Shown: in pieces, positions 38,523-64,000 of the stretch
How the letters are laid out: every line of letters begins with the position of its first letter
How positions within the stretch are numbered: the stretch's first letter is position 1
From: Candidatus Poribacteria bacterium
GTDB taxonomy: Bacteria; Poribacteria; WGA-4E; WGA-3G
Length of the DNA: 64,000 bases
Reading direction: 5' to 3'
NCBI GenBank assembly: GCA_965221425.1
Contig: OZ244889.1
Location: 2,843,854 to 2,907,853 of the forward strand
The notes under the pieces: generated by a model
Seen by the model: the letters and a program-made list of their open reading frames with translations, nothing else
The model's database searches: none
Told to the model about the DNA's origin: nothing
Made by a program: the position numbers and the translations under genes

Positions 38523-38532
38523 GAAAAGCCAG

Positions 38533-39633: not shown

Positions 39634-39647
39634 TCACATCCGCCCTC

Positions 39648-39730: not shown

Positions 39731-39788
39731 GGAACACGGGTAAGTGTGATTTCTAAACGCGCCTATATTAGACGAAAGTCAATCACTT

Positions 39789-43886: not shown

Positions 43887-44012
43887 TGCTACCCTTAATG
43901 GAATATTCAGATAAAGAATTCAAATTTGCCTCAATTATGACAATCATGCAACCTTTTAACTTTTAAATCGCGTCATTAATTACTGTAAGCACACGGTATA
44001 ATGAGGACTCTA

Positions 44013-46736
44013 ATGAAAAAAAGCGATGCAGAATTAATTCACCAAATCTTATCCGGCGACGAGGCGGCTTTCAGTGCCTTAGTCCAAAAATACCAAAAAA
44101 GTGTTCATGCGCTTGCATGGCGGAAAATCGGTGATTTCCATATCGCTGAAGAAATTACACAAGATATTTTTCTACATGTATACAAAAAATTACCAACCCT
44201 GAAAGACTCGAATCAATTTGCTGGATGGTTATATGTGATCGCTAACAGACAATGCATTGCATGGCTGCGTAAGAAAAAACGGGCAGTGCAATCCCTTGAG
44301 GCTACAAGCCAAGAGACGTTAGAAGAAACCGCTTATGCCTGCTATATTTCAGAACAACGTGAAGAGGCGGAAGCTGAGCGCCGCCGCGAAATTGTTCAAA
44401 ATCTGTTGGAAAAGTTACCGGAGAGTGAACGTACGGTCGTTGTCCTCCACTACCTCGGAGAGATGACTTGCGAAGCGATTAGCAAGTTTTTAGGTGTATC
44501 ACCAAACACGGTTAAAAGCCGGTTGAGTCGCGCACGAAAACGTCTAAGAGAAGAAGAATCTCTAATTCGTGAAACTCTTGGCACTGTTCCACTGTCTCCA
44601 AATCTAACTGCAAACATCATGCGGGATATTAGCAACGTAGAACAGACACCACCCTCAGTGAGTAAGCCGCTGTTACCATTAGGGGCTTTAGGTTCATCTG
44701 TCGTTCTAATTATTTTCTTGCTGGGCGCGAGCAATCAATACCTGACTTACTTTCAATTGCCCTATAGTTTTGACGCGCAATCAGAAACCGCTATTGAAAT
44801 TGTTGAAACACCTATTATCCCTAATATCAAACCGAAACCTGATGTGAAAAATCGTGTTGGAAGCGATACTGCTCTCGGAAAAAGTAGCAATGACGGATTA
44901 GCACAAGGAAAATCATCTATGCAAAATAACTTTACCCAAGATTCTACAAAATGGAAATTGCCGGAAGGTGCAAAAACGCGCCTCGGAAAAGGACACATAT
45001 TTGATATGGTTCACTCTCCTGATGGCAAACTACTTGCTGCCGCAGGAACGATCGGTATATGGATTTATGATGCACACACCGGTGAAGAACTCAACCTGCT
45101 CACAGAACACATGGAAAGTGCTTCAACAGTCGCTTTCAGTCCTGATAACAGCCTTTTGGCAAGTGATGGAAAAGATAACACCATACTGTTATGTGATCCG
45201 CATACAGGAAAACATAAAATGACTCTCACAGGACATACTGAAGGTATTAGTTCGGTAGTGTTTAGTCCTGATGGGAAAACACTGGCAAGTGGGAGTGAAG
45301 ATGAAACGATCCGTTTGTGGGATGTGGCTACAGGTGAACAACTTCTTGTCTTTGCTGGACATGCAGGTGGTGTCTCTGAGGTCATATATTCTCCAGATGG
45401 CGAAATACTTGCCAGCCACGGCATGGATGAAATGATTCATCTGTGGGATGCTAACACTGGCAAATACCTTCGCTCAATTACTGAGTATGAGGGAGACGTT
45501 TATTCCATGGCATATTCGCCTGATGGCGAGGCTTTAGCAAGCGGCGGAGCGGATGGAATAATTCGATTATGGGAGTATCATACCGGACAGCTTAAGACAA
45601 CCTTAACTGCCACAACAAACTCCGGAGGAGTTAAGAAAGTAGCGTTCAGTCCAGACGGACAGACACTCGTTAGTAATAACTACGAAAATGATATGATTCA
45701 GTTTTGGGATGTGGCTTCAGGTGAACGACTCGAAACCATAAAAAGCCCACCAGATACGACCCATCATATAGTGTTCTCCCCGGATGGTAGGACATTGGTA
45801 AATGCTGGTAGTGATGGTACAATTCGGTTCTGGGATGTTGCCACCACTAATCCGATTCGAACCCTTGATGGATATGCAGAAATGTTTCGTGATATGGCAT
45901 ATTCACCAAATGGAAATACACTTGCTACTGTAAGCTCCGGTCCAAGCTTGCGATTATGGGATCCTCACACTGGCAGACTAAAAAAGATCTACTTTCCAGG
46001 TTCCATTAGTATCACTTGTATCGCTTATGCTCCAGATGGCGTAACGCTTGCATGTGGACCGGGACCAACTGAATATGACACGGTGTATCTATTCAATACT
46101 GAGACAGGAGAGCATGGACGCGTTTTCAGTGGATACAAGGACACTATTGAATCAGTGGCGTTTAGCCCAGATGGAAATACTATAGCATGTGCAGGTTGGG
46201 ACGAGACAATCAGATTGTGGGATGTTAGGACAGGCGAAACTATAAAAATTCTTACAGGAGAGAAGGATATTATTAGGGAAATTGACTATTCTCCGGATGG
46301 GAAGATGCTTGTGAGTACGAGCGATTCAGAAATCCGTTTTTGGAATATAAATACAGGTGAAACTGTAAAAGCTATTCCCGGTCACACTGTTGCGCTTTCA
46401 CCGAACTGGGAAAAGTTTATAAGCTGGGGATATAATATAGATATCCAGTTATGGAATATGGATAGTGATGAACCAGTGAAAACCATCACGTCAGAAGAAA
46501 AAACATACTTTCGGGCGTATTCACCAGACGGACGTACAATTGTTGGCATTGATTCGGAAGGTCAATTATCGTTTTGTGATGCGGGGACTTGTGAGGTTAT
46601 TCAGACTTTTGCCATCGGACATAAAAGAAGTAATAGGTCAGAAGGTGTCTATTTTATTAGATATTCACCAGACGGACGCACCCTCGCCACTGGGGGATGG
46701 GACAGCACAGTTCTATTATGGGATGTCCCGCAGTAA
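44013..46736 (+). CDS. ECF-type sigma-70 domain - TM helix - 14-blade WD40 fusion protein (sigma-WD1)
   Basis: Coordinates below use the ORF-track numbering, where aa 1 = nt 44001. Region 2 is IAEEITQDIFLHVYKK...FAGWLYVIANRQCIAWLR. Region 4 is LPESERTVVVLHYLGEMTCEAISKFLGVSPNTVKSRLSRARKRL. A TM helix sits at aa 223-245 (nt 44667-44735). The motif WKLPEGAKTRLGKG comes next, then 14 (F/Y)SPDG...WD units. I prefer ATG 44013 (GAGGA 4 nt upstream) over ATG 44001. Confidence 0.8.
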   Translation: MKKSDAELIHQILSGDEAAFSALVQKYQKSVHALAWRKIGDFHIAEEITQDIFLHVYKKLPTLKDSNQFAGWLYVIANRQCIAWLRKKKRAVQSLEATSQETLEETAYACYISEQREEAEAERRREIVQNLLEKLPESERTVVVLHYLGEMTCEAISKFLGVSPNTVKSRLSRARKRLREEESLIRETLGTVPLSPNLTANIMRDISNVEQTPPSVSKPLLPLGALGSSVVLIIFLLGASNQYLTYFQLPYSFDAQSETAIEIVETPIIPNIKPKPDVKNRVGSDTALGKSSNDGLAQGKSSMQNNFTQDSTKWKLPEGAKTRLGKGHIFDMVHSPDGKLLAAAGTIGIWIYDAHTGEELNLLTEHMESASTVAFSPDNSLLASDGKDNTILLCDPHTGKHKMTLTGHTEGISSVVFSPDGKTLASGSEDETIRLWDVATGEQLLVFAGHAGGVSEVIYSPDGEILASHGMDEMIHLWDANTGKYLRSITEYEGDVYSMAYSPDGEALASGGADGIIRLWEYHTGQLKTTLTATTNSGGVKKVAFSPDGQTLVSNNYENDMIQFWDVASGERLETIKSPPDTTHHIVFSPDGRTLVNAGSDGTIRFWDVATTNPIRTLDGYAEMFRDMAYSPNGNTLATVSSGPSLRLWDPHTGRLKKIYFPGSISITCIAYAPDGVTLACGPGPTEYDTVYLFNTETGEHGRVFSGYKDTIESVAFSPDGNTIACAGWDETIRLWDVRTGETIKILTGEKDIIREIDYSPDGKMLVSTSDSEIRFWNINTGETVKAIPGHTVALSPNWEKFISWGYNIDIQLWNMDSDEPVKTITSEEKTYFRAYSPDGRTIVGIDSEGQLSFCDAGTCEVIQTFAIGHKRSNRSEGVYFIRYSPDGRTLATGGWDSTVLLWDVPQ

Positions 46737-46789
46737 GTGCCATTACATAATATAGACAACAGACACAATCTTCAAGGAGTTTAAATTAC

Positions 46790-48769
46790 ATGAAAATATT
46801 AAACATCATACTGGCTTTTGGACCGCTAATCTCTACATTCTATCTGTTAACTTTTTTGTCTACAACCGCTTTCTCTCAAAATCATATCCACTTAGGACTA
46901 CCTGCAGGTGCAAAAGCACGACTCGGAAAAGGCAGAATACATCAAGTAAAGTATTTTCCTGATGGCAAACGTTTGGCTGTTGCTACTTCTATCGGTATCT
47001 GGATATACGATGTTCAAACAGGAGAGGTGCTTGACCTGCTCACGGGACACACAGCACCGGTTACGTCAATAGCCTTCAGTCCAGATGGTGAAACTTTTGC
47101 TTCTGGAAGTAAAGACAACACCATTCGATTATGGGATAGCAAAACACACAAACTTAAAGCAATCTGTATTGGTCATGAAAATGAGGTCAATTTATTAGCA
47201 TTTAGCCGTGATGGTAAGATGCTTGCTAGCACGAGCAGGGACTGGAAGATGCGGCTCTGGGACGCGCGCACAGGTAAACCACTTCAAACTATCACAGATT
47301 GTGGTGCCGACGATATGTATGCAATAGCATATTCTCCGGATGGTAAGACTTTCCTCACATTCAGGTATGATGACAAGTTTGAAGCATATATTGAATTCTG
47401 GGATGTGCAAACCGGTGAATTTTTAAATTCGGTTCTCATTGAAGCAAATTTCAATGCTGCAGCGATTTCACCTGATTGCAAGATTTTGGCTTGCGGTGGC
47501 GAAGATCCGCTTCAATTTTGGGATGTCGAGACGGGTAAACTCTTAAGAAGCTACACAAAATGGGTAGGAAATTTTGAGTCTATGGAGTTTTCATCCGATG
47601 GGAAGACTCTCATCACAGGTAGTTATTGGGACAGAGTTGATATTTGGGACGTTGGCACAGCAAAACTTCTAAAAAGCATGGGGCATGCTGACACGGTCAA
47701 TTCTGTAACGTATTCACCAGATGAAAAGACAATCGCAAGTGGAAGTGACGATGGTACAATCCGGTTCTGGGATGCCGCTACTGGCGATCAAATAAAAATG
47801 ATTACCGGACATGCCTCCTCAAAAATCTATTCTGCAGCATATTCTTCTGATGGTAACACACTTGCTTGTGGTGGTAAGTCCAAAATTCAATGGTGGGATT
47901 CACTGACAGGTGAACATCTAAAAACGATCAAAGAACCGAGTTGTGATGTCCATTCAATTGCATATTCTTCGGATGCAAAGCTACTTGCAACTGGTGGTAC
48001 TTCTATGAAAGCGCGTTTGTGGGACGGGCAGACGGGTCGGTTCCTCGGCAGTTTTAAGGGACATAAGAGCAGGGTTACTGACGCATATAAGTATCAGGTT
48101 TCTTCCGTAGCGTTTTCCCCCGATGGCAGGACGCTTGCCAGTGGAGGTGGGAAGAAGATGCCCAGAAATTCCGTCAAGAAAGCCAGTAGTGAAGACAATA
48201 TGGTCTGTTTGTGGGAGATTCGCACAGGTGAATTATATCCGATTGGTGAACGTTTGGCAATCTTTACCGAACATACGGATCGGGTCTCTACAGTGGTATT
48301 TTCGCCTGATGGTACTACACTTGCCAGTGGTAGCCAAGACAAGACAATTCAACTTTGGGATATAAACACGCGCAGCCATTTGAAAACGCTCACAGGACAT
48401 GAAGAGGGTGTTGCCGCTGTGGTATATTCGCCAGATGGTAGCACACTTGCAAGTGGTAGTCAGGATGGGACTATACGATTGTGGCACGCGCACACGGGCG
48501 ACTTGGTGCTACCGCCAATTGAAGAAGCGGGACAAGTAACTTCTTTGGCGTATTCTCCAGATGGGAATTTGCTTGCAAGTGGTAGTGAGGACGACAACGC
48601 TGTACATGTCTGGAATGCACAGACTGGGAAACGCCTGCAAACCTTCATTGGATATACACAGAGCGTCAACGCTGTTGTATTTTCTCCAGATGGTAAAACG
48701 CTTGCAAGTGTGAGTGAAGATGGCACAATTCTTTTGTGGGACCTCACACAATTGGTAAGTGATCAATAG
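46790..48769 (+). CDS. exported 14-blade WD40 repeat protein (WD2)
   Basis: AAGGAG RBS. The signal peptide is MKILNIILAFGPLISTFYLLTFLSTTAFSQN, followed by GLPAGAKARLGKG and canonical GH...SPDG..LASGS.D.TIRLWD units. It starts 53 nt after sigma-WD1 ends. Confidence 0.85.
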   Translation: MKILNIILAFGPLISTFYLLTFLSTTAFSQNHIHLGLPAGAKARLGKGRIHQVKYFPDGKRLAVATSIGIWIYDVQTGEVLDLLTGHTAPVTSIAFSPDGETFASGSKDNTIRLWDSKTHKLKAICIGHENEVNLLAFSRDGKMLASTSRDWKMRLWDARTGKPLQTITDCGADDMYAIAYSPDGKTFLTFRYDDKFEAYIEFWDVQTGEFLNSVLIEANFNAAAISPDCKILACGGEDPLQFWDVETGKLLRSYTKWVGNFESMEFSSDGKTLITGSYWDRVDIWDVGTAKLLKSMGHADTVNSVTYSPDEKTIASGSDDGTIRFWDAATGDQIKMITGHASSKIYSAAYSSDGNTLACGGKSKIQWWDSLTGEHLKTIKEPSCDVHSIAYSSDAKLLATGGTSMKARLWDGQTGRFLGSFKGHKSRVTDAYKYQVSSVAFSPDGRTLASGGGKKMPRNSVKKASSEDNMVCLWEIRTGELYPIGERLAIFTEHTDRVSTVVFSPDGTTLASGSQDKTIQLWDINTRSHLKTLTGHEEGVAAVVYSPDGSTLASGSQDGTIRLWHAHTGDLVLPPIEEAGQVTSLAYSPDGNLLASGSEDDNAVHVWNAQTGKRLQTFIGYTQSVNAVVFSPDGKTLASVSEDGTILLWDLTQLVSDQ

Positions 48770-48774
48770 CTATA

Positions 48775-49215
48775 TCAGTGTGGTTGGGAAATCGCACCAT
48801 AGATGTCAATTTAAAAATTTTCCAATCACGTTTAGGGATTACTATCCCTCTTTTGTAGATTGGGTTGAGGAACGAAACCCAACATGAAACGCTTTTATAT
48901 ACTCGAAATGTTGAGTTTCACCTACGGTTCAACCCATAGCCGTCAATTTAGTATCCATTGTGAGCGGTAGGCGCGCTTTGTAAGCGCGCTGGCTCTGTCT
49001 GAAAAGCGGCTTGGTGGTAGAGAAGGTTTCTTCTGTAGGAGCGACCTCCAGGTCGCGACCGGGAGGTCGCTCCTACAGAATATAAGAGGCGCAATGAATT
49101 GCGCGACTACAAACGCCGCTAACCTTAAGAAAATGTAAATATATTTTGATTTTAACTATAATAAAAAGAAATGTAAGAGACGCAATGAATTGCGCGACTA
49201 CGAACGGTCTATTTC
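48775..49215. repeat. mosaic repeat region between WD2 and sigma-WD3
   Basis: It contains the GTGGTTGGGAAATCGCACCATAG hairpin, two CATAG.CGTCAATTTA modules, a GGGTTGAGGAACGAAACCC hairpin, GGTAGGCGCGCTTTGTAAGCGCGCTGG, the 16-bp-stem hairpin TGTAGGAGCGACCTCC...GGAGGTCGCTCCTACA, and two copies of GCAATGAATTGCGCGACTAC.AACG. Confidence 0.75.
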
Positions 49216-49318
49216 TTTAAGAGAAGTTATTTTCAGAAATTGTATAATTATTCATTTTTTTAAACCCACTCCTTGAAAACCTCCCTCTTTCTATTAAAAC
49301 CGAATTAGAAATTTATTT

Positions 49319-51856
49319 ATGAACAGCGATTTGATTACTCTCAGAGACCTTAAAGACGATGAGATTATACGTCTTGTACAAAACCGTGATGAAGCGGCAT
49401 TTACGGAACTCATGTCCCGTTATTCGCCGCAGATTTGGCGTATAGTAGTCGCAAAATCTAGACAACACCGGGATGCAGAAGAAATTCGTACTGACATCTG
49501 GATGGCAGTGTGGGACAATATAGGGGGGCTCCGGAAAATAGATAGTTTTGGTGCATGGTTGCGGCGAATTGCATATAACGCTTGTAACAGGTATTATTCT
49601 TCTCACCGCCGTTCGCGTGAGGAAATCCCACAGAGCAATGCGGATTTAGCCGAACATATTGACCAAGATGCCCCAACACGTTATCAGGAAGCACAATTAC
49701 GCGCAGATGCCAGAGAGGCGGTGAATCACCTCCCACATCGGGTCCGTCCCATCGCTGTCCTGTACTATCTTGAATCCTGGAGTGTCAAAGACATTGCGCA
49801 AAAACTTAACTTAGCTATAGGCACAGTCAAGACCAGATTAAGAGAAATCCGCTCACTCCTGCGGAAGGAGTTTGGCGTTGAGCCTCAACAAGGAGATATT
49901 ATGTCGTTAGAATCCGTTGGATCGCACAATCTTGAGAATTACATTGAAAACTATCTACCGAAAGGCGCAATAACAAGGTTCGGTAAAGGCTATGTATTTG
50001 ATTTTGCATATTCGCCAGATGGAACTCGCCTTGCTTTAGCAAGTACAATTGGTGTCTGGCTGATTGATGTAGCAACCGGTGAGGAAATCAATCTGTTAAC
50101 TGGACATACTTATTATGTCGATAACGTTGTTTTCAGTCCTGATGGTAGAACGCTTGCAAGTTTAAGTAAAGGATACCACGGCGATGGTGTTATTCGTTTA
50201 TGGGATGCCGTCACTGGAGAATCTAAAGCAGTACTTACAGAAGGGATAAATTCTCCTATTTTCAGTCCTGATGGTAAAACACTGGCAAGCAGTGGTGGTG
50301 GAGTAATCCATTTATGGGATGGTGGCACAGGTGAACTAAAAAGAACGCTCATAGGGCACACAGCTCCAGTCAAGACGTTAGCATTCAATCCAGATGGCAG
50401 CACACTTGCAAGCGGCGGTATTGATGAAGTCATCCGATTTTGGGATCTTTCCACTGGTGAGCTACAGTTAACCTTCGCAGCACACGCAAATACTGTAGAT
50501 TCCTTAAAGTATTCTCCAGATGGAGAGGTCCTTGTTAGTCAAGGTGGAGATAACAATGTTTGCCTATGGAATGCACGGACCGGTGAATTTTTGCGCATAC
50601 TCACAACTTGGACAGAAGATAATTATTCTATTGACTTTTCAAAAGATGGGAGAACACTTGTAGGTGTGAATTCCGATGAAACTGTCCGATGGTGGAACCC
50701 TCATACCGGTGAGCAACTCAAAACAATAAAACAGAATAGAGAGCTTGAGGAAGTGCAGTATTCTCCGGATGGTAGAATATTTGCATGTAGTGAGTGTTAT
50801 GGAAAAGCAACAGTCCTACTATTTGATGCCGACACGGGAGAGTTATTACATGATCTCAAAATGCCTGGACATGCAGAATGGGTTACTGGTTTTCAATTTT
50901 CACCTGATGGGCAGACACTTGCCGTTAAAACCGAGAATGAAATATATTTCTGGGATGTAAATACCGGTGAACTTGAAAAGACAATCACAGGATATTCTGA
51001 TGTTGTAAGTAGTGTAGCATATTCTCCTGATGGGAGGACATTAGCGAGTTTAGACGATATCGTACGTATTTGGGATTTAGATACGCAGAAACTCATAAAA
51101 ACACTTTCCACAAAAACACTTTCTGTGAAAGGGTCAATAAGGGCAATCGCATATTCTCCTGATGGGGAGACACTCGCTTGTGGAACTATGGATAAAACGA
51201 TTGTACTATGGAATGTTAGCGAATGGAAAAAAAGAGGAGCACTCAAAGGACATACAAATGGCGTATCCTCGGTAGCCTTTAGTCCAGATGGACAAACCCT
51301 TGCCAGTGGCAGCTGGGATGGGACAATCCAATTGTGGGATGCCCACACAGGAGAACACTTAAAAATCTTTGATAGGCATGCATCGTATGTTAGTAAAGTT
51401 TTATTTTCACCTACTGGACAGATTTTAGCCAGTATTGAAGACGATGAAACAATTCGTTTTCGGGATGTTGCAACGGGGAAACTTGTGAATGCTATAAAAA
51501 TGGAAACAGATGTTGATGTCTGTTCTATAGATTTTTCTTCTGATGGGACAACCCTTGTAACCGCAGACGACACCCTGAAAATTAAATTTTGGGATGTTTC
51601 TACTGCACAGCAAAAATCTATCACACACTTAGAAGCAAAAGGTTATTATGCTGTCCTTTCACCAGATAGCAACACACTTGCAAGCGCAGTTGCTGAGGAT
51701 GAAATATTTTTGTGGGATGTTGCTACAGGAAAACTTCTGAAAACTTTAAAGGGACATATAGGCGGTATTAATTCTATAGTCTTTTCTCCAGATAGCAAAA
51801 CACTCGCGAGTTGCTGTAGAGACAGCACAGTAATTTTATGGGATTTAACGAAATAG
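49319..51856 (+). CDS. ECF-type sigma-70 domain fused directly to a WD40 propeller, with no TM helix (sigma-WD3)
   Basis: Region 2 is DAEEIRTDIWMAVWDNI...FGAWLRRIAYNACNRY. Region 4 is LPHRVRPIAVLYYLESWSVKDIAQKLNLAIGTVKTRLREIRSLLRKE. About 25 aa later comes NYLPKGAITRFGKG followed by WD40 units. There is no hydrophobic segment between the domains. Confidence 0.8.
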   Translation: MNSDLITLRDLKDDEIIRLVQNRDEAAFTELMSRYSPQIWRIVVAKSRQHRDAEEIRTDIWMAVWDNIGGLRKIDSFGAWLRRIAYNACNRYYSSHRRSREEIPQSNADLAEHIDQDAPTRYQEAQLRADAREAVNHLPHRVRPIAVLYYLESWSVKDIAQKLNLAIGTVKTRLREIRSLLRKEFGVEPQQGDIMSLESVGSHNLENYIENYLPKGAITRFGKGYVFDFAYSPDGTRLALASTIGVWLIDVATGEEINLLTGHTYYVDNVVFSPDGRTLASLSKGYHGDGVIRLWDAVTGESKAVLTEGINSPIFSPDGKTLASSGGGVIHLWDGGTGELKRTLIGHTAPVKTLAFNPDGSTLASGGIDEVIRFWDLSTGELQLTFAAHANTVDSLKYSPDGEVLVSQGGDNNVCLWNARTGEFLRILTTWTEDNYSIDFSKDGRTLVGVNSDETVRWWNPHTGEQLKTIKQNRELEEVQYSPDGRIFACSECYGKATVLLFDADTGELLHDLKMPGHAEWVTGFQFSPDGQTLAVKTENEIYFWDVNTGELEKTITGYSDVVSSVAYSPDGRTLASLDDIVRIWDLDTQKLIKTLSTKTLSVKGSIRAIAYSPDGETLACGTMDKTIVLWNVSEWKKRGALKGHTNGVSSVAFSPDGQTLASGSWDGTIQLWDAHTGEHLKIFDRHASYVSKVLFSPTGQILASIEDDETIRFRDVATGKLVNAIKMETDVDVCSIDFSSDGTTLVTADDTLKIKFWDVSTAQQKSITHLEAKGYYAVLSPDSNTLASAVAEDEIFLWDVATGKLLKTLKGHIGGINSIVFSPDSKTLASCCRDSTVILWDLTK
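49890..49903 (+). promoter_or_regulatory. internal Shine-Dalgarno plus ATG at the sigma/WD40 domain junction of sigma-WD3
   Basis: AAGGAG (49890-49895), a 5-nt spacer, and an in-frame ATG (49901, codon 195). The product would start MSLESVGSHNLENYIENYLPKGAITRFGKG, mirroring the N-terminus of the free-standing WD5. Confidence 0.45.
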
Positions 51857-51932
51857 GAATTATATAGTGAACTTTCAAATTATTGGGACATTTTGATAAA
51901 CCTGCTTCAAAAACATAACGGACAGCAGAAGT

Positions 51933-52021
51933 TGTAGCACAAACTTTTAGTTTGTGCCGCTGAGACGCAAACTAAAAGTTTGCGCTACAGAAGTGTCCCA
52001 TTAATTATAGGTTTTACTATA
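51933..52021 (+). repeat. double GCACAAACT palindrome + GTGTCCCATTAATTATAGGTTTTACTATA end, immediately upstream of WD4
   Basis: TGTAGCACAAACTTTTAGTTTGTGCCGCTGAGACGCAAACTAAAAGTTTGCGCTACAGAAGTGTCCCATTAATTATAGGTTTTACTATA. Confidence 0.8.
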
Positions 52022-52046
52022 CATCAAAAATAGAGATGAGGAGGAC

Positions 52047-53990: not shown

Positions 53991-54178
53991 TTGGAAAGTG
54001 ATGTTCTTAATTTACCAATATTAATGTGTTTTTTTGGACAAAACGCGCAAAAAGTGCATCCATGGATGTGTTAATGAGGTGTCCGTGACGAAGTTTAAGA
54101 ATTGTTAACGCCAGTTTGATAATAAATGACATCAGCTTAATAACAGGTCTTTTCTCCGAAGGCCCACCTTGCGGTTCT

Positions 54179-54262
54179 TGTAGCACAAACTTTCCAGTTT
54201 GTGTGCTATGGGCGCAAACTGGAAAGTTTGCGCTACAATAGGCTTTTATCAAACTCACGTAA
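54179..54262 (+). repeat. double GCACAAACT palindrome module immediately upstream of WD5
   Basis: TGTAGCACAAACTTTCCAGTTTGTGTGCTATGGGCGCAAACTGGAAAGTTTGCGCTACAATAGGCTTTTATCAAACTCACGT. Confidence 0.8.
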
Positions 54263-54281
54263 TTGTTAAGGAGAATTGGTT

Positions 54282-56213: not shown

Positions 56214-56243
56214 TTTGTAACCCAAAACAGAGGTATTGATGAT

Positions 56244-58070: not shown

Positions 58071-58074
58071 TAAT

Positions 58075-59895
58075 ATGAATATTGAAAATCTACCACCCTA
58101 CATGCAATGGGGGCTTCCCCCAGGTGCAAAAGCACGTCTCGGCAAAGGTGGTCTTGAAGAGGTAAGATATTCACCAGATGGAGCACAGCTTGCCGTCACA
58201 GGTTTGATCGGTATTTGGTTATACGATGCCCATACTTACAAGGAAGTTGCGCTTCTTCAGCGTGGTCAGAATCAAGGAACAAACACACTTCCGCTTTCGT
58301 GGACAGGTACGACCCTTTTCACGCAAAATTGGGATGGAACGCTTTCAATTACGTTATGGGATACGCAAACCGGACGACGCCAAATTACCTTTAGAGAGCA
58401 TACAAAGGATATCCAAGATATTAAACTTTCACCAGATGGCACAACTTTTGCCTCTGTCGGGTGGGATAAGGCAGTTCGATTTTGGGATAGTCGTACAGGT
58501 CGTTTACGTTCTACTGTTATAGGGCATACTGAGCCAATCCTTACGTTAGTATTTTCAGCAGATAGTAAGACTCTTGCCACTGGCGGTTTTGACCACACTA
58601 TTCGACTTTGGGATGTCAGCGATGGCAGCTGCCTTTCCACTCTCACCGGGCATGAAGATGATATTAGACATCTTGCGTTTTCTCCAAACGGTATTATTCT
58701 TGCCAGCAGAAGTCGGGATAAAACCGCATGTTTGTGGGATGTTCCTACCGGTGAAAAGGTGGCAACTCTCATAACAGATATTGAAGAGTACGGGAAAACG
58801 GTATTTTCACCAGATGGCACTCTTATCGCAACAAATTGTGATGATCATTCCATCCAGATATGGAATGCTGACACGGGTGTAGAACATACCAGGCTCATAG
58901 GACATCAAGCGTTAATCTGGGATATAACGTTCTCACCTGATGGCAAAACACTTGCAAGTGTCAGTGAGGATAGCACTATTCGGTTTTGGAACGTAAACAA
59001 CGGCATAGAAAAAGGGATCATCACTGGGCATGCAAGATGGAGCATTTTTCTCGATTTTTCACCTGATGGCAGCGTTCTCGCCAGCAGCGCAAGTGATAAT
59101 ACACCTCACCTGTGGGATATGAATACTTACGCTGAGTCGACACCTTTTGACGGTCCTCGCGACTCTATTGATCATGTTGCATTTTCTCCCGATGGTGCAA
59201 TGCTCGCAAATGCCAATAATGAGAGAATTTTCTTGTGGCATGTCAACTCCGGCACCCAAAGCGCAATCTTGCAGGAACATACAGATTATATTCGCACATT
59301 AGCATTCGTCCCGAATAGTACGACACTTGCCAGCGGGAGTGACGACAACACAATCCGATTATGGGACATTGATACAGGAAATCAATTAGCACTATTAACA
59401 GGACATACTGATAATATATTGGCAGTTGCCGGTTCACCAGATGGTACAATCCTTGCAAGTTGTAGTGCTGATGAGACACTTCGTTTATGGAATGCAAATA
59501 CAGGGCATCCGCTTACTGTTCTTAAGGGACATACCGAAAAGATTGGTGCGATTGCATTTTCACCGAATGGCAGAGTCCTCGCCAGCGCAGGTTGGGATGG
59601 AACAATTCGGCTATGGGATCCACAAAATTGTGAACTTATCTCAACCTTTGCAGTACCAGATAATCTTTATGCATTGGCATTTTCCACCGATGGAAATATC
59701 CTTGCAGGTGGCGGTCAAGATGATAAAGTTCGATTATGGGATGTTCACACCGGTAACCTTCGGGCAGTCATGAGTGGACACTATGCTGACATTGAGGCTT
59801 TGGTGTTTAGTCCCGATGGCAGAACCCTTGCCAGCGGCGGTGATGATGGCACCATCCTTTTGTGGGACCTTGCGACTGTTGAAAGCACGTATTGA
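58075..59895 (+). CDS. WD40 repeat protein (WD7), tandem duplicate of WD6
   Basis: It starts 4 nt after the WD6 stop. PYMQWGLPPGAKARLGKG is present, and the protein is collinear with WD6 along its whole length. Even the RBS context AGAGGTATTGAT(G/A)ATATGAA is shared. Confidence 0.85.
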   Translation: MNIENLPPYMQWGLPPGAKARLGKGGLEEVRYSPDGAQLAVTGLIGIWLYDAHTYKEVALLQRGQNQGTNTLPLSWTGTTLFTQNWDGTLSITLWDTQTGRRQITFREHTKDIQDIKLSPDGTTFASVGWDKAVRFWDSRTGRLRSTVIGHTEPILTLVFSADSKTLATGGFDHTIRLWDVSDGSCLSTLTGHEDDIRHLAFSPNGIILASRSRDKTACLWDVPTGEKVATLITDIEEYGKTVFSPDGTLIATNCDDHSIQIWNADTGVEHTRLIGHQALIWDITFSPDGKTLASVSEDSTIRFWNVNNGIEKGIITGHARWSIFLDFSPDGSVLASSASDNTPHLWDMNTYAESTPFDGPRDSIDHVAFSPDGAMLANANNERIFLWHVNSGTQSAILQEHTDYIRTLAFVPNSTTLASGSDDNTIRLWDIDTGNQLALLTGHTDNILAVAGSPDGTILASCSADETLRLWNANTGHPLTVLKGHTEKIGAIAFSPNGRVLASAGWDGTIRLWDPQNCELISTFAVPDNLYALAFSTDGNILAGGGQDDKVRLWDVHTGNLRAVMSGHYADIEALVFSPDGRTLASGGDDGTILLWDLATVESTY

Positions 59896-59972
59896 TTGAA
59901 ATATTAAATAGCATGTAATACCATTTCTATCAATTTTTGTCCATTAGCGGTTGTTAGAAATGAAGCGGAATG

Positions 59973-60002
59973 TGGCACAAACTATGAAGTTTATGCTACA
60001 AA
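59973..60002 (+). repeat. degenerate single GCACAAACT palindrome upstream of WD8
   Basis: GGCACAAACTATGAAGTTTATGCTACAAA. Confidence 0.5.
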
Positions 60003-60048
60003 AAAGAGACATTATATATCAAAAATAGTATAAGTTGGAGACATTATC

Positions 60049-62061
60049 ATGAAAAAGAACATACCGCTTCAGTTTGACTACGATAGCACAGACAGCAGCA
60101 CATGGCATTTACCTGAAGGTGCAATTGCCAGGTTAGGAAAAGGTAATAGCGTCACAATGACATTATCCCCAGATGGTACGCTTCTCGCTATTGGAAGTTA
60201 TCTCGGTATGTGGTTGTATGATGTAACTAAGGGTACGCCCCTATCACTTTGGGAAGTAGGAACACAAATTTCAGCTGTCGCCTTTTCTGCTTGTGGAGAA
60301 TGGATAGCAACAAGCAGCTGGGGCGGTCCTATCAAAATCTGGGATGTGAAAAGCGAGAATTGCTTAGCAGAATTACCGCGAGATGAAAGTGGAGGCAATT
60401 CCGAACTTGTCTTTTCACCCAATCGAGAATGGTTTGCTGTAGGAGGAACAGATAGAAGTTCTAATCCCGAGAAGAAACTATATTGTAGTGTTGAAGTTTG
60501 GCGGCTTCCAGAAAATCTACAAGAGAATGCAACCTCTAATTGTCCGACACGAGAATTATTGTATGTGGGGACCAACCCGCTTGCATTTTCACCAGATGGA
60601 AAGTTACTCGCTTTTGCTTCCCCTGACGGAGCCCCTGAACCGTTTAATACAAACGGATATCCTGTAATTGGTGGAAGATGGTTGTTAGATGCAAGCCAAG
60701 TTGTAGTCTATGAGTTAGCAACGAGACAACATCTCACCACTCTTGATGGGGGTAAAGATGTCAGTTCTATCTCCTTTTCACCGTGCGGGAAGTTTATGGC
60801 TATATGTGACCGGAACGGTATTACCAAGGTATGGAAAGTACCTGGACAACCCGCAACAGAACTGCAATCTTGGCACCTGCATAAGGTTTATCAGGAAGTG
60901 GTCGACAACGGTTCCCACAATATCAGTTATGCACCGGAAAACCGACTCTTATCTACTGTTTACGCATACAAAGATGACACTTTTTCAGTGCATGATTTAG
61001 ATAACAATGAAATACTTTATCAACACACCAAAGAAACTGGCCCCTATAACCCAGACTATTCCCATGGAACCCGTCTTGCATTCGAGAGTGAAAACGATGT
61101 ACATATTTGGATTGAGGGTGAAGACCAATTAGTTTCTTTGGGGCATACCGCTGGATTTTTTGTAGGTCCTCTGCAGTTTTCTTTAGATGGAAAGGTATTA
61201 ATCACAACAACCAGATATGATGGTATTTTCAGTTGGGATATTACACATCCCAACGATCCACCTCACATTTTTAAACCCCTTGGCATGAAACCGGATTCAG
61301 ATGGATGGGGAGAACGTTATTTTTGTGTGGAGGTATCGTCTGAAGGAAAGCACTTTGTCACTTCCGGTGATGAAAGTAGTGTTCGACTTTGGGAATTGGG
61401 AGCAGACACACCGATTGCATCGTTTTCTATACAAGCTGAAGCGTCTGACGCGGTTTTCTCCCCAACTGCCAATTTACTCGTCTGCATAGACAAGAATGGA
61501 AAGGTCTATATCTGGGATATCGCAACAGGTGAAATCTACGACACCTATACGACAGAAAAAACGCATACCTCACCTTACATAGAATTTAGTCCAGATGGCA
61601 CATATCTTATCAGTCATTCTGGTCAAATCTATGATGTTGTTCAACGTAAACCTCTGGACCGGTATTCAAGTGAGGATGGAATACAATTCCTGGCGTTTTC
61701 CCCGAATTCCTCCCAAATCTGGTGTGATTGGCAAGGATGGAATAGTGAGACAATAGATTTGTGGGATATTCAACAGGATGAAGAAGTACTGGAACTTCCC
61801 AAACCAGAGTGGTGGGAGTCTAAATATATTGAAGCGTTTGCATTATCTACATGTGGACAATATATCGCTTGCAGTCCTGATACGTGGACGCTTGACGGGC
61901 ATATATGTGTTTGGGATATCCGCAAGGGAGACGAACCTATTGTTACGTTAGGGTTGACAGAAGGCATATCTTCTCTTGCGTTTTCTCTTGATAACACGCT
62001 TTTGGCAAGTGCTGGCACAAGCGGTGCTATGCTACTTTGGGATATGAAACCTTATCTTTAA
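60049..62061 (+). CDS. divergent WD40-like beta-propeller protein (WD8)
   Basis: TWHLPEGAIARLGKG is present. The repeats are degenerate (FS.CGE, FSPDGKLL, FSPCGKF, IWD/VWK) and lack most of the GH/WD consensus. Confidence 0.7.
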   Translation: MKKNIPLQFDYDSTDSSTWHLPEGAIARLGKGNSVTMTLSPDGTLLAIGSYLGMWLYDVTKGTPLSLWEVGTQISAVAFSACGEWIATSSWGGPIKIWDVKSENCLAELPRDESGGNSELVFSPNREWFAVGGTDRSSNPEKKLYCSVEVWRLPENLQENATSNCPTRELLYVGTNPLAFSPDGKLLAFASPDGAPEPFNTNGYPVIGGRWLLDASQVVVYELATRQHLTTLDGGKDVSSISFSPCGKFMAICDRNGITKVWKVPGQPATELQSWHLHKVYQEVVDNGSHNISYAPENRLLSTVYAYKDDTFSVHDLDNNEILYQHTKETGPYNPDYSHGTRLAFESENDVHIWIEGEDQLVSLGHTAGFFVGPLQFSLDGKVLITTTRYDGIFSWDITHPNDPPHIFKPLGMKPDSDGWGERYFCVEVSSEGKHFVTSGDESSVRLWELGADTPIASFSIQAEASDAVFSPTANLLVCIDKNGKVYIWDIATGEIYDTYTTEKTHTSPYIEFSPDGTYLISHSGQIYDVVQRKPLDRYSSEDGIQFLAFSPNSSQIWCDWQGWNSETIDLWDIQQDEEVLELPKPEWWESKYIEAFALSTCGQYIACSPDTWTLDGHICVWDIRKGDEPIVTLGLTEGISSLAFSLDNTLLASAGTSGAMLLWDMKPYL

Positions 62062-62077
62062 AACAAGGAACAATATT

Positions 62078-64000
62078 ATGCAAAATCAAAAACCAGCAGC
62101 ACTCAATGTCGTTCCAAATGATCCTATAGGCAACACATGGGCATTACCAGAAGGCGCAATTGTGCGATTTGGAACAGGGGACCTTAATAAAGTGAAAAGT
62201 TCACTTTCTCCTGATGGCAAGTATCTCGCCGTTGGGACTGGAGTAGGACTTTGGTGGTATGATACCACGTCTATGATGCCGATCTCGCTCTGGGAAACGG
62301 AAAGAGGGTTTATTAGTTCAATTCATTTCTCTCATGATGGCAGACAGATTGTGATTCGCAATTGGGATCAAATCCTTAAGGTCATGGATGTTCAAACTGC
62401 TGAATGTATTTATGAAATGAAAGTGCAAGGTTCAAATTTCACCTTATCATCAAACAACAAGTGGATTGCATCATGTGATTGGCAAGGAATTGTCAGAGTA
62501 TATGATATACAGAAAGGTGAATTTTTAGCACAGATGGATCGTGGAGAACATGAGTGGAAATCAAACGATATTCCTCATCTTGAATTTTCTCCAGATGGTA
62601 ACTTCCTTGCTGGCACAGCACAAAATCCTAAAATGTATTCACCCGACGATCAAGTACTAAATCCTGACACAGAAGGTGAGCAAACATACCTATGGAATCC
62701 GGAAACAGGGGAGGTAATTCTCAAGTTTGCAGGATCAGATTTTGTCTTTTCGGCAGATAGTCGGCTGCTGGCAGCCGCATCTCCCGATGAATCACATTCC
62801 TCGAGTGATGCTAAACGTATTGACCGCTGTGTTTCAGTGTGGGATGTGGTATCAAGAAAACGGATTGCCCACTTTACAGAACATACTGATCGGGCAATTA
62901 ATATCACTTTTTCACCCTGTGGCAAGTTCATCGCTTCATGCGATGAAACATTGCAGACCTTGCGAGAATGGGAACTGGCAACCGGCACGCAAAAGAAGGT
63001 TTATGAGAATTGTCTTGATGCCTTCTACTCCCCGGATGGTATCTTATTTGGTGTTGTATTTGTTTCTGATGACACGATAGAGGTTTGGAACGTGGATTCT
63101 CAGCAAAAAATGCTGGAACTGCCTCAGAGTGTTAATTTTGGATCAGCAAAAAAGAAGGTTTTCGCCTACATGCAAGAACATCAATTCCAAATCGCTGATA
63201 TAATTGCTAACAAATTGGCAGATAGCATACAGAAGTCATCTCCAATAGAACATAGAATTGGTTTTGCCATGCCAGATCCGCTGGTTGTTTGGGTAAATGA
63301 CCAGACACTTGCAAGTGGGAGCTATAGGCAAGGTATTGTATTATGGGATATTGTGGAAAAACGCGTTTGTGAAAGGTTATTGGAGAGTGAAAAAATTCAT
63401 GTTTTCACAGTTCTACCTAATGGTAAAATGTTAGCTGCCTTGGTTAGCTCTAAATACGACACGACTAAGGTATGGGATGTAGCAAATTCTGATAAACCTA
63501 TCGCTGAGTTTAATGCAAATGTATGGTGGGAACGTCACCAAGCGTTTTCTCCTGCAGGTGATCGTATGGCTGCAGGGAGTACAGAAGACGGTAAAGTGTA
63601 TGTCTGGAATTTACAGCAACCTGAGCATCCAATGATACTGACTGGACATGCTAAAAAGCATATTTACTCACTTGCGTTTTCACCAAACGGCAAACGTTTG
63701 GTGACTGGCTCAGATGACAACACAGCAAGACTATGGGATGTAGAATTGGGTAAGCACATCGCGATACTGCCTATGAATGAACACCACACCCCGATAAAAG
63801 TATTGTTTTCGCCGTGCGGTAACATAATAGCTGGTGGGTTGGGCAGCGAAATCCGCTTGTGGTGTACGGAGCAACTTACAACATTACGTACAATACCGCA
63901 GCCAGACAACAACCAACGGGTTTATGCACTCGCTTTTTCACCGTGTGGCAATTATCTCGCATCGGGAACTTGGTGGGAGAAGGGCATGCAAAAAATGGCT
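62078..64000 (+). CDS. divergent WD40-like beta-propeller protein (WD9), 3' end outside the window
   Basis: ATG 62078 opens a frame with no stop up to nt 64000, which is why it is absent from the ORF track. TWALPEGAIVRFGTG is followed by units such as LSPDGKYLAVG, FSPCGKFIAS, FSPNGKRLVTGSDDNTARLWD and FSPCGNYLASG. Confidence 0.7.
   Translation, partial: MQNQKPAALNVVPNDPIGNTWALPEGAIVRFGTGDLNKVKSSLSPDGKYLAVGTGVGLWWYDTTSMMPISLWETERGFISSIHFSHDGRQIVIRNWDQILKVMDVQTAECIYEMKVQGSNFTLSSNNKWIASCDWQGIVRVYDIQKGEFLAQMDRGEHEWKSNDIPHLEFSPDGNFLAGTAQNPKMYSPDDQVLNPDTEGEQTYLWNPETGEVILKFAGSDFVFSADSRLLAAASPDESHSSSDAKRIDRCVSVWDVVSRKRIAHFTEHTDRAINITFSPCGKFIASCDETLQTLREWELATGTQKKVYENCLDAFYSPDGILFGVVFVSDDTIEVWNVDSQQKMLELPQSVNFGSAKKKVFAYMQEHQFQIADIIANKLADSIQKSSPIEHRIGFAMPDPLVVWVNDQTLASGSYRQGIVLWDIVEKRVCERLLESEKIHVFTVLPNGKMLAALVSSKYDTTKVWDVANSDKPIAEFNANVWWERHQAFSPAGDRMAAGSTEDGKVYVWNLQQPEHPMILTGHAKKHIYSLAFSPNGKRLVTGSDDNTARLWDVELGKHIAILPMNEHHTPIKVLFSPCGNIIAGGLGSEIRLWCTEQLTTLRTIPQPDNNQRVYALAFSPCGNYLASGTWWEKGMQKMA

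Follow-up and report, generated by a model that had tools for sequence, protein, structure and literature searches.

Fusions of ECF sigma factors to WD40 repeats are already known from sequence, and membrane-bound hybrids of sigma and anti-sigma factors are known experimentally. ECF57 is a group with WD40-like extensions, for which no cognate anti-sigma factor is known, regulation via protein interaction has been proposed, and two conserved cysteines have been suggested to link sigma2 and sigma4 (PMC8999054); proteins of this type occur at 5.3 copies per planctomycete genome (PMC7826278). ECF01-Gob, which the first-pass annotation of the present DNA named as the group with WD40 extensions, is indeed cited for a C-terminal extension (PMC4937300), but the WD40-like extension is ascribed to ECF57 (PMC8999054). 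Among the membrane-bound forms, the ECF48, ECF52 and ECF53 hybrids, e.g. SCO4117, combine an ECF sigma, a transmembrane segment and an extracytoplasmic domain, and regulated intramembrane proteolysis is the demonstrated route of activation for IutY of Pseudomonas putida (ECF243), which is released by Prc and RseP (PMC8999054). In ECF41 and ECF42, a soluble C-terminal extension (SnoaL-like, TPR) modulates sigma activity (PMC8999054, PMC7826278). As a rule, the members of an ECF group retain a target promoter of their own, and autoregulation is usual (PMC7826278). WD40 genes are also highly abundant in Poribacteria as 'eukaryote-like repeat proteins' (PMC3909097), a literature that considers a possible role in host interaction; the papers found mention no link to sigma factors.

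Here we describe an array of WD40 genes, two of them fused to ECF sigma factors, in a 64,000-nucleotide stretch of DNA (the window) from a 5.2-Mb contig of a sponge symbiont, Candidatus Poribacteria.

Composition of the array

Nine co-directional plus-strand ORFs occupy positions 44001-64000 and reach the window edge, and both the ORF calls and Pfam confirm the first-pass description of nine WD40 genes starting at 44.0 kb. Minus-strand ORFs of 150-240 residues within the WD genes are nested antisense frames and were left out of the gene set. All nine products display strong WD40/beta-propeller scores in Pfam and represent double propellers with ~12-15 blades each, the tandem repeats being supported as closed propellers by the Pfam WD40 and whole-propeller models. 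The proposed split into seven canonical and two divergent members is also recovered, with PF00400 scores of 296-384 bits for the former as compared to 103 and 135 bits for WD8 and WD9, which share ~25% identity with everything else in the array. Using an HMM built from the array's own WD40 repeats, we counted 14 units each in sWD1, WD4, WD6 and WD7 (the same number as noted initially for sWD1 and WD6), 15 each in sWD3 and WD5, 14 units and a fragment in WD2, and ~12-13 detectable units in WD8 and WD9. Beyond the two fusions, sWD1 and sWD3, no sigma sequences were detected in the window by tblastn, and Rfam returned zero matches in it.

The arrangement is common and conserved across Poribacteria, while WD5-WD9 form a periphery that varies between genomes. 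The first pass knew of no described array of this sort, and we found nothing in the Poribacteria literature on ECF or sigma factors describing such arrays, yet the arrangement is not rare. Two related arrays, L011 and L004, contain an IS insertion and frameshifts. A REP-like palindrome (TGTAGCACAAACT...; 51933-51989, unstranded) is located between sWD3 and WD4, with similar copies at 54178-54238 and 59971-60000, and is a genome-wide intergenic repeat without array specificity. Inverted repeats 5' of the fusions were similarly rejected as specific operators, since they belong to two intergenic repeat families present across the window and in other genomes.

The closest non-poribacterial relatives of the propellers are the WD40 arms of nSTAND NTPases, HTH proteins and kinases. 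In STAND NTPases and Ser/Thr kinases such arms are sensors attached to an NTPase or a kinase, whereas the propellers of the array are joined to an ECF sigma or to no partner domain.

A predicted membrane-bound and a soluble sigma fusion

Both fusions pass Sigma70_r2 and Sigma70_r4_2, congruent with the regions 2 and 4 assigned to them at the outset, and score 108.7 (sWD1) and 80.7 bits (sWD3) with the TIGR02937 sigma70-ECF model (cut-off 42.9). The sigma domains align over both regions to the solved structures of SigW, SigE, RpoE and AlgU, and their AF2 helices fit sigma2 and sigma4 with pLDDT >90. Both N-termini are genuine ECF-type (group IV) sigma domains of ~190 residues, with regions 2 and 4 but neither 1.1 nor 3, fused to WD40 double propellers. 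They do not, however, constitute the single family first envisaged: the two sigma domains share 27% identity and belong to different groups, and sWD1 is a predicted membrane form with a transmembrane (TM) helix, whereas sWD3 is soluble.

The sigma-TM-WD40 architecture of sWD1 (44013-46736, plus strand) was delineated using Pfam, NCBIfam, hydropathy, AF2 and family conservation. Its start is most likely the ATG at 44013, as in the first pass, judging from a GAGG ribosome-binding site and an ATG that are kept in orthologues; residue numbers nevertheless count from the ORF at 44001. The ECF sigma (residues ~10-190, nt 44028-44570) is followed by a short helix, NLTANIMRDISNV (201-213), a TM helix detected by hydropathy (224-244, nt 44670-44732), a conserved extracytoplasmic stalk (244-273), a low-complexity linker, and the 14-blade double propeller (318-911, nt 44952-46733). 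The protein is predicted to be a single-pass membrane protein with an extracytoplasmic (periplasmic) propeller, and 79 of 80 relatives of the N-terminal module possess a TM helix within ~30 residues of the sWD1 position. Orthologues collected via pattern scans (loci L002-L010) are 63-83% identical, and the exact protein, with either start codon, has no match in the gene-position index.

This sigma and TM module is greatly expanded in Poribacteria. In the family, hereafter sigma1, conservation spans the sigma, the juxtamembrane helix, the TM helix and the initial ~30 residues of the extracytoplasmic part, whichever ectodomain follows (WD40, BNR/sortilin, LRR, M16-like or Kelch), which supports a shared release mechanism. 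The TM helix includes a conserved Pro and Gly, helix-destabilising residues typical of site-2 protease substrates. No FecR-like or ZAS anti-sigma domain is present between sigma4 and the TM helix, as Pfam detects sigma domains only in residues 1-343 of sWD1, and merely ~35 residues are available in this gap. Neither was a separate anti-sigma gene recognised beside the fusions, in keeping with the first-pass view that the propeller occupies the place of such a partner. The AF2 model of the sWD1 sigma best matches the compact, anti-sigma-bound conformations of SigW/RsiW and CnrH/CnrY (TM 0.63-0.68, rmsd 6-7 A), with a poor match to holoenzyme conformations (rmsd 22-28 A), and the helix following sigma4 is confidently modelled (pLDDT ~82-85). 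The compact shape is however weak evidence, because AF2 often yields this form for isolated ECF sigmas.

In topology sWD1 resembles IutY and ECF48/52/53, since a single chain unites the sigma in the cytoplasm, the TM helix and a sensor on the outer side, although this does not extend to the TM-less sWD3. In contrast to the IutY type, sWD1 has a ~13-residue helix between sigma4 and the TM helix in place of a FecR-like or zinc-finger anti-sigma domain, its ectodomain is a WD40 double propeller in a family that swaps ectodomains, and it is co-encoded with a paralogous propeller predicted to be exported, WD2.

Analogously, sWD3 (49319-51856, plus strand; Pfam, NCBIfam, hydropathy, AF2 and structure alignment) is composed of an ECF sigma (residues 13-185, nt 49355-49873) and a 15-unit double propeller (212-845, nt 49952-51853), with no transmembrane segment by hydropathy. 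The AF2 model (overall pLDDT 83.3, pTM 0.67) has a well-defined propeller with ~60 strands at pLDDT ~85-95, for which the best Foldseek match is the 14-repeat double propeller 2ymu of Nostoc (E 3e-50), one of the highly repetitive bacterial WD40 proteins; the propeller part is a tandem 7+7(8)-blade WD40 with 35% identity to it. The ~24-25-residue connector between sigma and propeller is of low confidence (pLDDT ~32), and no confident packing between the two is seen in this model; the suggestion that the propeller occludes sigma regions 2 and 4 thus finds no support there. Full-length alignments with orthologues give 80-87% identity, and the sigma3 group to which sWD3 belongs is isolated, with 23 representatives at E<=1e-30 among 1.84 billion sequences, followed by a gap. 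As in ECF41 and ECF42, a soluble sigma carries a large domain at its C-terminus and lacks an anti-sigma gene. The extension is however a ~630-residue double propeller on a flexible connector, without confident sigma packing in AF2, and unlike in these groups a conserved partner gene follows immediately 3'.

With ECF57 and ECF01-Gob, the poribacterial fusions share an ECF sigma with C-terminal WD40 repeats (14-15 units here), the presence of several copies per genome and the lack of a recognised cognate anti-sigma factor. A Gemmataceae-like metagenomic protein, P0352, even exhibits a sigma-TM-WD40 organisation with the LP.GA..RLG cap motif of the poribacterial proteins. The known groups are nevertheless from another phylum, Planctomycetes, and identity between the poribacterial sigmas and those of the sigma-TM-WD40 proteins examined from elsewhere is only ~27-35%. 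Furthermore, the ECF57 cysteine pair is not seen: across 47 sWD3-type sequences the sigma domain has only one invariant cysteine (C89), and across 82 sWD1-type sequences one nearly invariant cysteine (C81). TM and TM-less architectures occur side by side here, in contrast to ECF57 and ECF01-Gob, and Poribacteria have conserved free propellers as dedicated candidate partners, whereas the two non-poribacterial examples inspected are singletons. A search for the same array in Planctomycetes with the Gemmataceae-like query recovered a single related locus, with an extension that lacks WD units according to the repeat HMM.

Candidate partner propellers and upstream elements

WD2 (46790-48769; Pfam, hydropathy and repeat HMM), a free double propeller with ~14 blades, starts 54 nt after the end of sWD1, and this position just downstream is conserved next to sWD1 orthologues. 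It begins with a hydrophobic segment resembling a signal peptide or signal anchor (residues 1-29, nt 46790-46876). WD4 (52047-53990; same methods), a free 14-blade double propeller without signal peptide, is 45% identical to WD2, and the two belong to the same clade (clade B), in which 0 of 46 members are sigma-fused. The free genes had been regarded as paralogues of the fusions' own sensor domain. Our survey of related genomes, in which the fusions and their order recur, corroborates that free propellers are conserved neighbours, but WD2 and WD4 fall in this separate, never-fused clade, and only WD5, WD9 and the WD6/WD7 pair group with propellers of which most or some carry a sigma in other genomes.

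In loci sampled around sigma fusions, and hence with a bias in adjacency counts, 32 of 44 clade B members are situated directly downstream of a sigma-WD fusion, as opposed to 3 of 22 members of the free WD6/7-type clade in the same loci. The gaps between fusion and partner are mostly 14-70 nt, and mostly 14-40 nt for the sWD3-WD4 orthologue pairs. The latter genes are adjacent in at least 17 species-level Poribacteria genomes, with the pair at 70-92% identity and often preceded by sWD1-WD2. Clade B propellers are only 35-38% identical to the fused propellers that precede them. Moreover, the partners tend to match the compartment of the fusion's propeller: among 118 non-redundant sigma-WD fusions, with counts that are non-independent as two orthologous pair types dominate, a hydrophobic N-terminal segment is present in 15/15 free WDs that follow a TM-bearing fusion, while after TM-less sigma3 fusions it is absent in 20 and present in 5 (5/25 break the rule). 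A free WD is missing downstream of many sigma1-TM-WD fusions (in 31 cases no plus-strand ORF of >=300 residues lies within 700 nt, in 24 a further fusion comes next, and in 8 a gene of another kind), and thus a partner propeller is not obligatory.

The remaining genes, all on the plus strand, display neither a TM helix nor a hydrophobic N-terminus by hydropathy, as is the case for WD4. WD5 (54282-56213; Pfam and repeat HMM), a 15-unit double propeller that most likely starts at ATG 54282, which AAGGAG precedes, rather than at TTG 54276, is 57% identical to the sWD3 propeller and represents a sigma-less member of a mostly sigma-fused clade; a search for a sigma relic 5' of the gene found none. 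WD6 (56244-58070) and WD7 (58075-59895), both 14-blade double propellers (Pfam and repeat HMM), are separated by 4 nt and 60% identical, constituting an old tandem duplicate, and the WD6 clade mixes sigma1-TM fusions with free copies. Of the divergent members, WD8 (60049-62061; Pfam and repeat HMM) has ~12 detectable blades, and genes of its type flank sigma3-WD9-type fusions in L005, L006 and L086. WD9 (62078-64000; Pfam), with start ATG 62078, is cut by the window end, and the related propellers of other genomes (38-52% identity) are fused to a sigma3 domain.

Each fusion is preceded by a promoter-like element on the plus strand that is specific to its group. The sigma1 element (43933-43974) comprises AATTATGACAAT (43933-43944) followed by ATGCAACC-N16-CGCGTC (43946-43974), and resembles the ECF -35 (AAC) and -10 (CGTC) elements. 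The ATGCAACC and CGCGTC boxes hardly vary 5' of 12 sWD1 orthologues with non-aligning flanks. The element has a single match in the window, and in 2.1 Mb of Poribacteria loci the pattern matches 72 times on the gene strand versus 4 times on the other, 58 of the 72 being directly upstream of sigma1-type fusion genes. The sigma3 element (49255-49310), TTTTTTTAAACCC-N16-CCTCTTTCTATTAAAACC, is kept 5' of 16 sWD3 orthologues with unrelated flanks and recurs 5' of nearly all sigma3-type paralogues, short ones included. Its triple AAACC pattern occurs nowhere else in the window, and TAAACC-N15-19-CTCTWTA has 35 matches in the Poribacteria loci, all on the gene strand, with a -35/-10 assignment that is not confident. 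Both motifs are strand-biased and located at approximately -30 to -60 of nearly all members of their own group, which fits the ECF autoregulation rule (PMC7826278). No further copies that could serve as regulon sites were found in the window beyond the two 5' of the fusions. Generic scans of the window were at chance level, for sigma-70 promoters (47 vs 41.7 expected) as well as terminators (12 vs 15.8 expected), and neither the group motifs nor the generic scan revealed a promoter for WD4-WD9. As neither promoter type is recognisable for WD5-WD9, these genes may be read through from sWD3.

Proposed mechanism and alternatives

Aggregated, the domain content, predicted topology, conservation, pairing and group-specific upstream motifs established here lead us to favour, on balance, a reading of the region as two one-component ECF sigma modules peculiar to Poribacteria, with one dedicated free double propeller apiece, plus five further free paralogues. 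The activity, proteolysis, physical interactions, signal and autoregulation of these modules we infer as follows. In the first, sWD1 and WD2, a cytoplasmic sigma would be linked through the short helix and the TM helix to the stalk and 14-blade propeller on the outside, with WD2 probably co-transcribed and exported or anchored on the propeller's side. The tethered sigma would be inactive at rest. The propeller may read an extracytoplasmic signal, together or in competition with WD2, and the signal would trigger proteolytic release of the sigma, as with IutY, whereupon the freed sigma would activate its own GCAACC-N16-CGCGTC promoter. In the second, sWD3 and WD4, a soluble sigma of another ECF group would be joined by the flexible connector to its 15-unit double propeller, which would act as a regulatory C-terminal extension. 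WD4 would be the cytoplasmic partner propeller, the state of the extension may be set by WD4 or a ligand, and sWD3 would drive its own TAAACC-N~17-CCTCTTT promoter. WD5-WD9 may be sigma-less relatives of the sensor-type propellers, or additional partners.

Alternatively, the free propellers are not signalling partners. The locus would then be a hot-spot in which 'eukaryote-like' WD40 proteins, serving as scaffolds or effectors in the sponge symbiosis, duplicate in tandem and exchange domains, with sigma fusion as one of several propeller fates and adjacency reflecting birth by duplication. Such an origin would agree with the reported abundance of WD40 as a eukaryote-like repeat in Poribacteria (PMC3909097), with the differing WD5-WD9 periphery, the IS insertion and frameshifts in L011 and L004, and the many fusions without a free neighbour, as well as with clades that mix fused and free members, WD5 and WD9 being sigma-less with fused relatives elsewhere. 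We nonetheless consider it unlikely, as the WD2/WD4 clade is too distant from the preceding fused propellers to consist of recent duplicates, is never fused, and follows fusions far more often than the other free clade. Additionally, whether its members carry an export signal follows from the topology of the fusion before them, and the strong conservation of the sWD3-WD4 pair across genomes also speaks against this alternative. The absence of an export signal in six of the seven free propellers is moreover ill-suited to secreted host effectors.

In a second alternative, sWD1-type proteins would be permanently membrane-tethered sigmas or transcription activators similar to ToxR or CadC, with the propeller acting allosterically or via oligomerisation and without need of proteolytic release. 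Neither an anti-sigma domain nor a protease gene is recognisable in the locus, the juxtamembrane segment is short, and the conserved stalk and TM helix could equally transmit a signal. However, a sigma has to join the RNA polymerase core and reach promoters, and the sole characterised membrane-fused ECF sigma, IutY, is freed by Prc and RseP. Together with the conserved helix-destabilising Pro and Gly of the sigma1-family TM helix, this renders permanent tethering rather improbable.

Finally, the notion that the fusions or their order are assembly chimeras over WD40 repeats, a concern raised from the start, or gene-call fusions, is effectively refuted, for although repeats with a 126-nt period densely fill the region, misassembly is unlikely given that DNA repeats at 43-64 kb are <=221 nt and <=~80% identical to the reference copy (the few closer copies being <50 nt), the paralogues share <=60% protein identity, the exact sWD3 protein is also encoded by a 2.7-kb Logan contig of independent origin and by contigs >1 Mb, full-length fusions in the same order are present in dozens of independently obtained MAGs, chromosome-level assemblies among them, and the open reading frames run through the sigma-propeller junctions without break. 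Rather, the array looks like a one-protein signalling system with dedicated partner propellers.

Extending the two-module reading, we tentatively put forward a large poribacterial signalling network of membrane-tethered one-component ECF sigmas, in which a module of sigma, TM helix and conserved stalk would bear interchangeable sensor ectodomains, a possibility we hold with clear reservation. Heteromeric propeller pairs would form in this network, in which the dedicated, never-fused partner in the same compartment would gate sigma release or activity, with sigma-less copies such as WD5 and WD9 as competitors, and many 'eukaryote-like' WD40 proteins would be parts of transcriptional sensing, not host mimics.

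ECF sigmas with fused sensors are a recognised but almost untested class, and the groups with WD40 extensions are without a characterised member. The locus is well suited to asking how a propeller controls a sigma, being compact, conserved and equipped with internal controls: membrane and soluble versions lie side by side, each with a predicted cognate promoter and a candidate dedicated partner. ECF sigma/promoter pairs usually function in heterologous hosts, and the predictions are therefore directly testable despite Poribacteria being uncultured. For the sponge symbionts, the finding changes the reading of their abundant WD40 'eukaryote-like proteins', at least a large subset of which is probably wired to transcription.

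Propeller and sigma domains of the array

The array begins at 44.0 kb and continues up to the edge of the window. Its nine genes are long plus-strand ORFs, and all of their products are matched by WD40 and whole-propeller Pfam models. Two of them, sWD1 (44001/44013-46736) and sWD3 (49319-51856), join an ECF sigma to WD40 repeats, while the others are free propellers: WD2 (46790-48769), WD4 (52047-53990), WD5 (54276/54282-56213), WD6 (56244-58070), WD7 (58075-59895) and the divergent WD8 (60049-62061) and WD9 (62078 to beyond 64000). PF00400 scored 296-384 bits in the seven canonical proteins, and 103 and 135 bits in WD8 and WD9, which are ~25% identical to every other array protein. A repeat HMM made from the array's own repeats yielded 14 WD40 units each for sWD1, WD4, WD6 and WD7, congruent with the 14 counted in the first-pass annotation for sWD1 and WD6; it gave 15 each for sWD3 and WD5, 14 plus a fragment for WD2, and ~12-13 for WD8 and WD9. 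The nearest propeller pairs are WD6/WD7 (60% identity), sWD3/WD5 (57%) and WD2/WD4 (45%), the remaining canonical pairs being 32-38% identical.

The earlier assignment of the two fusion N-termini to ECF sigma factors was borne out. The N-terminal ~190 residues of sWD1 and sWD3 constitute a complete ECF sigma domain, passing Sigma70_r2, r4_2 and TIGR02937 (108.7 and 80.7 bits, respectively, cut-off 42.9) and aligning along its whole length with ECF sigmas of known structure. The two domains share only 27% identity, and no further sigma-like sequence was detected within the window.

Relatives and partners in Poribacteria

All relatives belong to Candidatus Poribacteria, a group of sponge symbionts. 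A scan of species-representative genomes for the N-terminal module of sWD1 (sigma, TM helix and linker) recovered at least 594 stretches, at least 568 of which were confirmed. In 79 of the best 80 of these matches the TM helix is positioned within ~30 residues of that in sWD1, with a C-terminal part of 300-900 (mostly 650-800) residues. Among the matches listed, ~45 relatives carry full WD40 double propellers, and other ectodomains comprise BNR/sortilin-type propellers, LRR, an M16-peptidase-like domain and Kelch repeats. Orthologues of sWD3 (80-87% full-length identity) are present in many genomes, some labelled 'sigma-70 family RNA polymerase sigma factor' or 'LpqB family beta-propeller' by NCBI. 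Only 23 of 1.84 billion representative proteins are related to the sWD3 sigma domain (sigma3) at E<=1e-30; beyond these, scores fall to ~92 bits, the generic ECF level.

A WD4 orthologue lies immediately 3' of sWD3 in at least 17 species-level genomes, often with sWD1-WD2 preceding the pair in related loci, and the downstream WD5-WD9 segment varies; in most cases 14-70 nt separate a fusion from its partner. We clustered 227 non-redundant double propellers from loci related to the array. None of the 46 WD2/WD4-clade members is sigma-fused; the sWD3/WD5 clade (n=25) holds 20 sigma3 fusions, one fusion to a sigma of the sWD1 group (sigma1) and four free copies, five of seven WD9-clade members are fused, and both sigma1-TM fusions and free copies occur in the sWD1 and WD6/7 clades. 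Direct placement 3' of a sigma-WD fusion applies to 32/44 WD2/WD4-clade members and to 3/22 free WD6/7-clade members of the same loci. The partner's export signal tracks the topology of its fusion, being present in 15/15 free partners after TM fusions and absent from 20/25 after TM-less fusions (Fisher's exact test 8e-7, descriptive only, as the cases are related by descent). WD8-type genes adjoin sigma3-WD9 fusions in other loci.

From fusion status, adjacency and export-signal counts, the free array genes are therefore of two kinds: WD2 and WD4 form a dedicated, never-fused partner clade, and WD5, WD9 and WD6/7 are sigma-less members of sensor-type clades. The proposal that the free genes are paralogues of the fusions' own sensor does not hold for WD2 and WD4. 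We regard it as highly probable that the sigma-propeller fusions are functional and conserved and that dedicated partners are encoded alongside them. A reading of the array as a hot-spot where unrelated scaffold proteins arose by duplication is unlikely.

Topology, promoter-like motifs and possible mechanism

Hydropathy analysis placed a single TM helix between sigma and propeller in sWD1 (aa 224-244, numbered from the 44001 ORF) and a signal-peptide- or signal-anchor-like hydrophobic N-terminus in WD2 (aa 6-24), and neither feature in the remaining seven array proteins. As the sWD1 sigma must be cytoplasmic, the propeller beyond the helix is expected outside the cytoplasm, in the compartment also predicted for WD2. 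Across 120 members of the sigma1-TM family, conservation regardless of ectodomain extends over the sigma domain, a short post-sigma4 helix (NLTxNIMRQV), the TM helix with its Pro and Gly, and a stalk of the first ~30 extracytoplasmic residues (SNQYLxRFQKPYSFEAQSExTIEIVDAPIV; 44730-44819, plus strand, aa 244-273). The stalk matches no Pfam family and may represent a cleavage or docking site.

In an AF2 model of the sWD1 N-terminal module, sigma reached pLDDT >90 and the extra helix ~82-85, with low values for TM helix and stalk. The modelled sigma is far closer to the compact anti-sigma-bound SigW/RsiW and CnrH/CnrY than to holoenzyme conformations; this clue is weak, since AF2 models of free ECF sigmas often take this form. 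The sWD3 model (pLDDT 83.3, pTM 0.67) comprises sigma2, sigma4 and ~60 strands, with a low-confidence connector (residues 188-211); by fold it is closest to the Nostoc 14-repeat double propeller 2ymu, with eukaryotic tandem propellers and Apaf-1 ranking next. Neither pLDDT nor pTM indicated packing of the sWD3 propeller on sigma.

Upstream of sWD1 orthologues a single block is conserved, AATTATGACAAT-c-ATGCAACC-N16-CGCGTC (43933-43974, plus strand); a GAGG ribosome-binding site and the start codon, ATG at 44013, come after it. The pattern GCAAC-N17-19-GCGTC has 72 gene-strand matches in 2.1 Mb of loci versus four on the other strand; 58 of the 72 are directly upstream of sigma1-type fusions and three upstream of free WD genes. 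Orthologues of sWD3 share a different block, TTTTTAAACC-N~17-CCTCTwTAT..AAAAC (49255-49310, plus strand), also found upstream of nearly all sigma3-type paralogues, short ones included, with all 35 matches in the loci on the gene strand. Within the window each motif is present a single time, and neither was found before WD4-WD9. ECF promoters are group-specific and usually autoregulated (PMC7826278), a pattern that both candidate motifs would fit.

Hairpins in the intergenic gaps before WD4-WD9 are members of genome-wide repeat families. A REP-like intergenic palindrome family with core TGTAGCRCAAACTTT has 14 matches in the window (0.4 expected by chance), between array genes (51933-51989, 54178-54238, 59971-60000) and outside (1901, 4248-4303, 7468-7524, 21866, 33840-33868). 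A second, with core GCGAGGTTAGGAAACCTCGC, has nine matches (0 expected), with copies at 3697, 24149, 31552, 33544, 36069, 41267 and 43782/43827, and forms a ~144-nt nested palindrome upstream of sWD1 (43743-43886); similar copies in other Poribacteria (L003, L010, L086) occupy intergenic positions that are not homologous, which makes this family look MITE- or REP-like. The 550 nt preceding sWD3 also hold a near-perfect, spacerless 25+25-nt palindrome (49031-49080, 96% complementary), which is not conserved upstream of the orthologues.

In module 1 (sWD1 and WD2), the membrane would hold sWD1, whose periplasmic propeller, with or against WD2, would sense a signal; IutY-like proteolysis would then free the sigma to activate its own promoter. 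In module 2 (sWD3 and WD4), the sigma would be soluble, with its own propeller as regulatory extension and WD4 as partner. IutY has been shown to release its sigma by proteolysis, a similar release has been proposed for ECF48/52/53, and the C-terminal extension of the WD40-bearing ECF57 has been proposed as regulatory (PMC8999054). The specific gating and proteolysis steps are tentative, with at best an even chance, and the composite of partnered fusions, gating and proteolysis is mildly favored. That sWD1-type proteins instead are permanently tethered activators appears improbable.

Assembly, neighborhood and known systems

An assembly artefact behind the fusions or gene order is scarcely credible, considering the even G+C along the entire window, DNA repeats restricted to the 126-nt WD40 period (copies <=221 nt and <=~80% identical to the reference copy, the few closer ones <50 nt), an independent 2.7-kb Logan contig encoding the exact sWD3 protein, the 5.24-Mb contig carrying the window, and recurrence of the same fusions and order in many independent assemblies. 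The array with its sigma-propeller fusions is real and conserved. Two related arrays are decaying, with an sWD1-type gene interrupted by an inserted 301-aa ORF (L011:10010-13670) and a WD2 orthologue split in two ORFs (L004:12743-14792).

Elsewhere in the window, 37732-41171 holds a three-part set, a HigB/HigA toxin-antitoxin-like Gp49/HTH_37 pair, a TPR protein and a fusion of N6/N4 DNA methylase and HNH nuclease, between aminotransferase and sulfatase genes; these adjoin in L004, so the set looks like an insertion. A UvrD/REP-type helicase (17634-19349) has a GIY-YIG nuclease match within its N-terminal helicase domain (aa 133-206). A 658-aa Ser/Thr protein kinase (34024-36000) lies ~8 kb upstream of the array, with a kinase-like ORF at the equivalent position in L004.

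Sigma-WD40 fusions in Planctomycetes are known from sequence analysis, ECF57 with 5.3 copies per genome (PMC7826278), and PMC4937300 cites ECF01-Gob as having a C-terminal extension. Compared by reported traits, ECF57 likewise joins WD40 repeats C-terminally to an ECF sigma, but its two conserved cysteines are not shared by the window's sigmas. Two non-poribacterial sigma-TM-WD40 proteins, P0341 (L113:2189-5278) and the Gemmataceae-like P0352, fall outside the poribacterial sigma groups (27-35% sigma identity to those of the window); the sigma domain of one of the two shares 63% identity with its counterpart in a Gemmataceae MAG. Both share the LP.GA..RLG cap motif before blade 1 with the poribacterial fusions, and both lack a neighboring free propeller.

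We found no published link between poribacterial WD40 genes and sigma factors in the literature searched. What appears new is the phylum in which the sigma-WD40 fusions occur, an isolated sigma3 group, an expanded sigma-TM-stalk module with interchangeable ectodomains, adjoining membrane and soluble fusion versions in one array, a never-fused partner clade compartment-matched to its fusion, and two predicted promoter motifs, one each for sigma1 and sigma3. The array represents a compact, directly testable system for propeller control of ECF sigmas, and sigma-linked propellers alter the interpretation of sponge-symbiont WD40 proteins.
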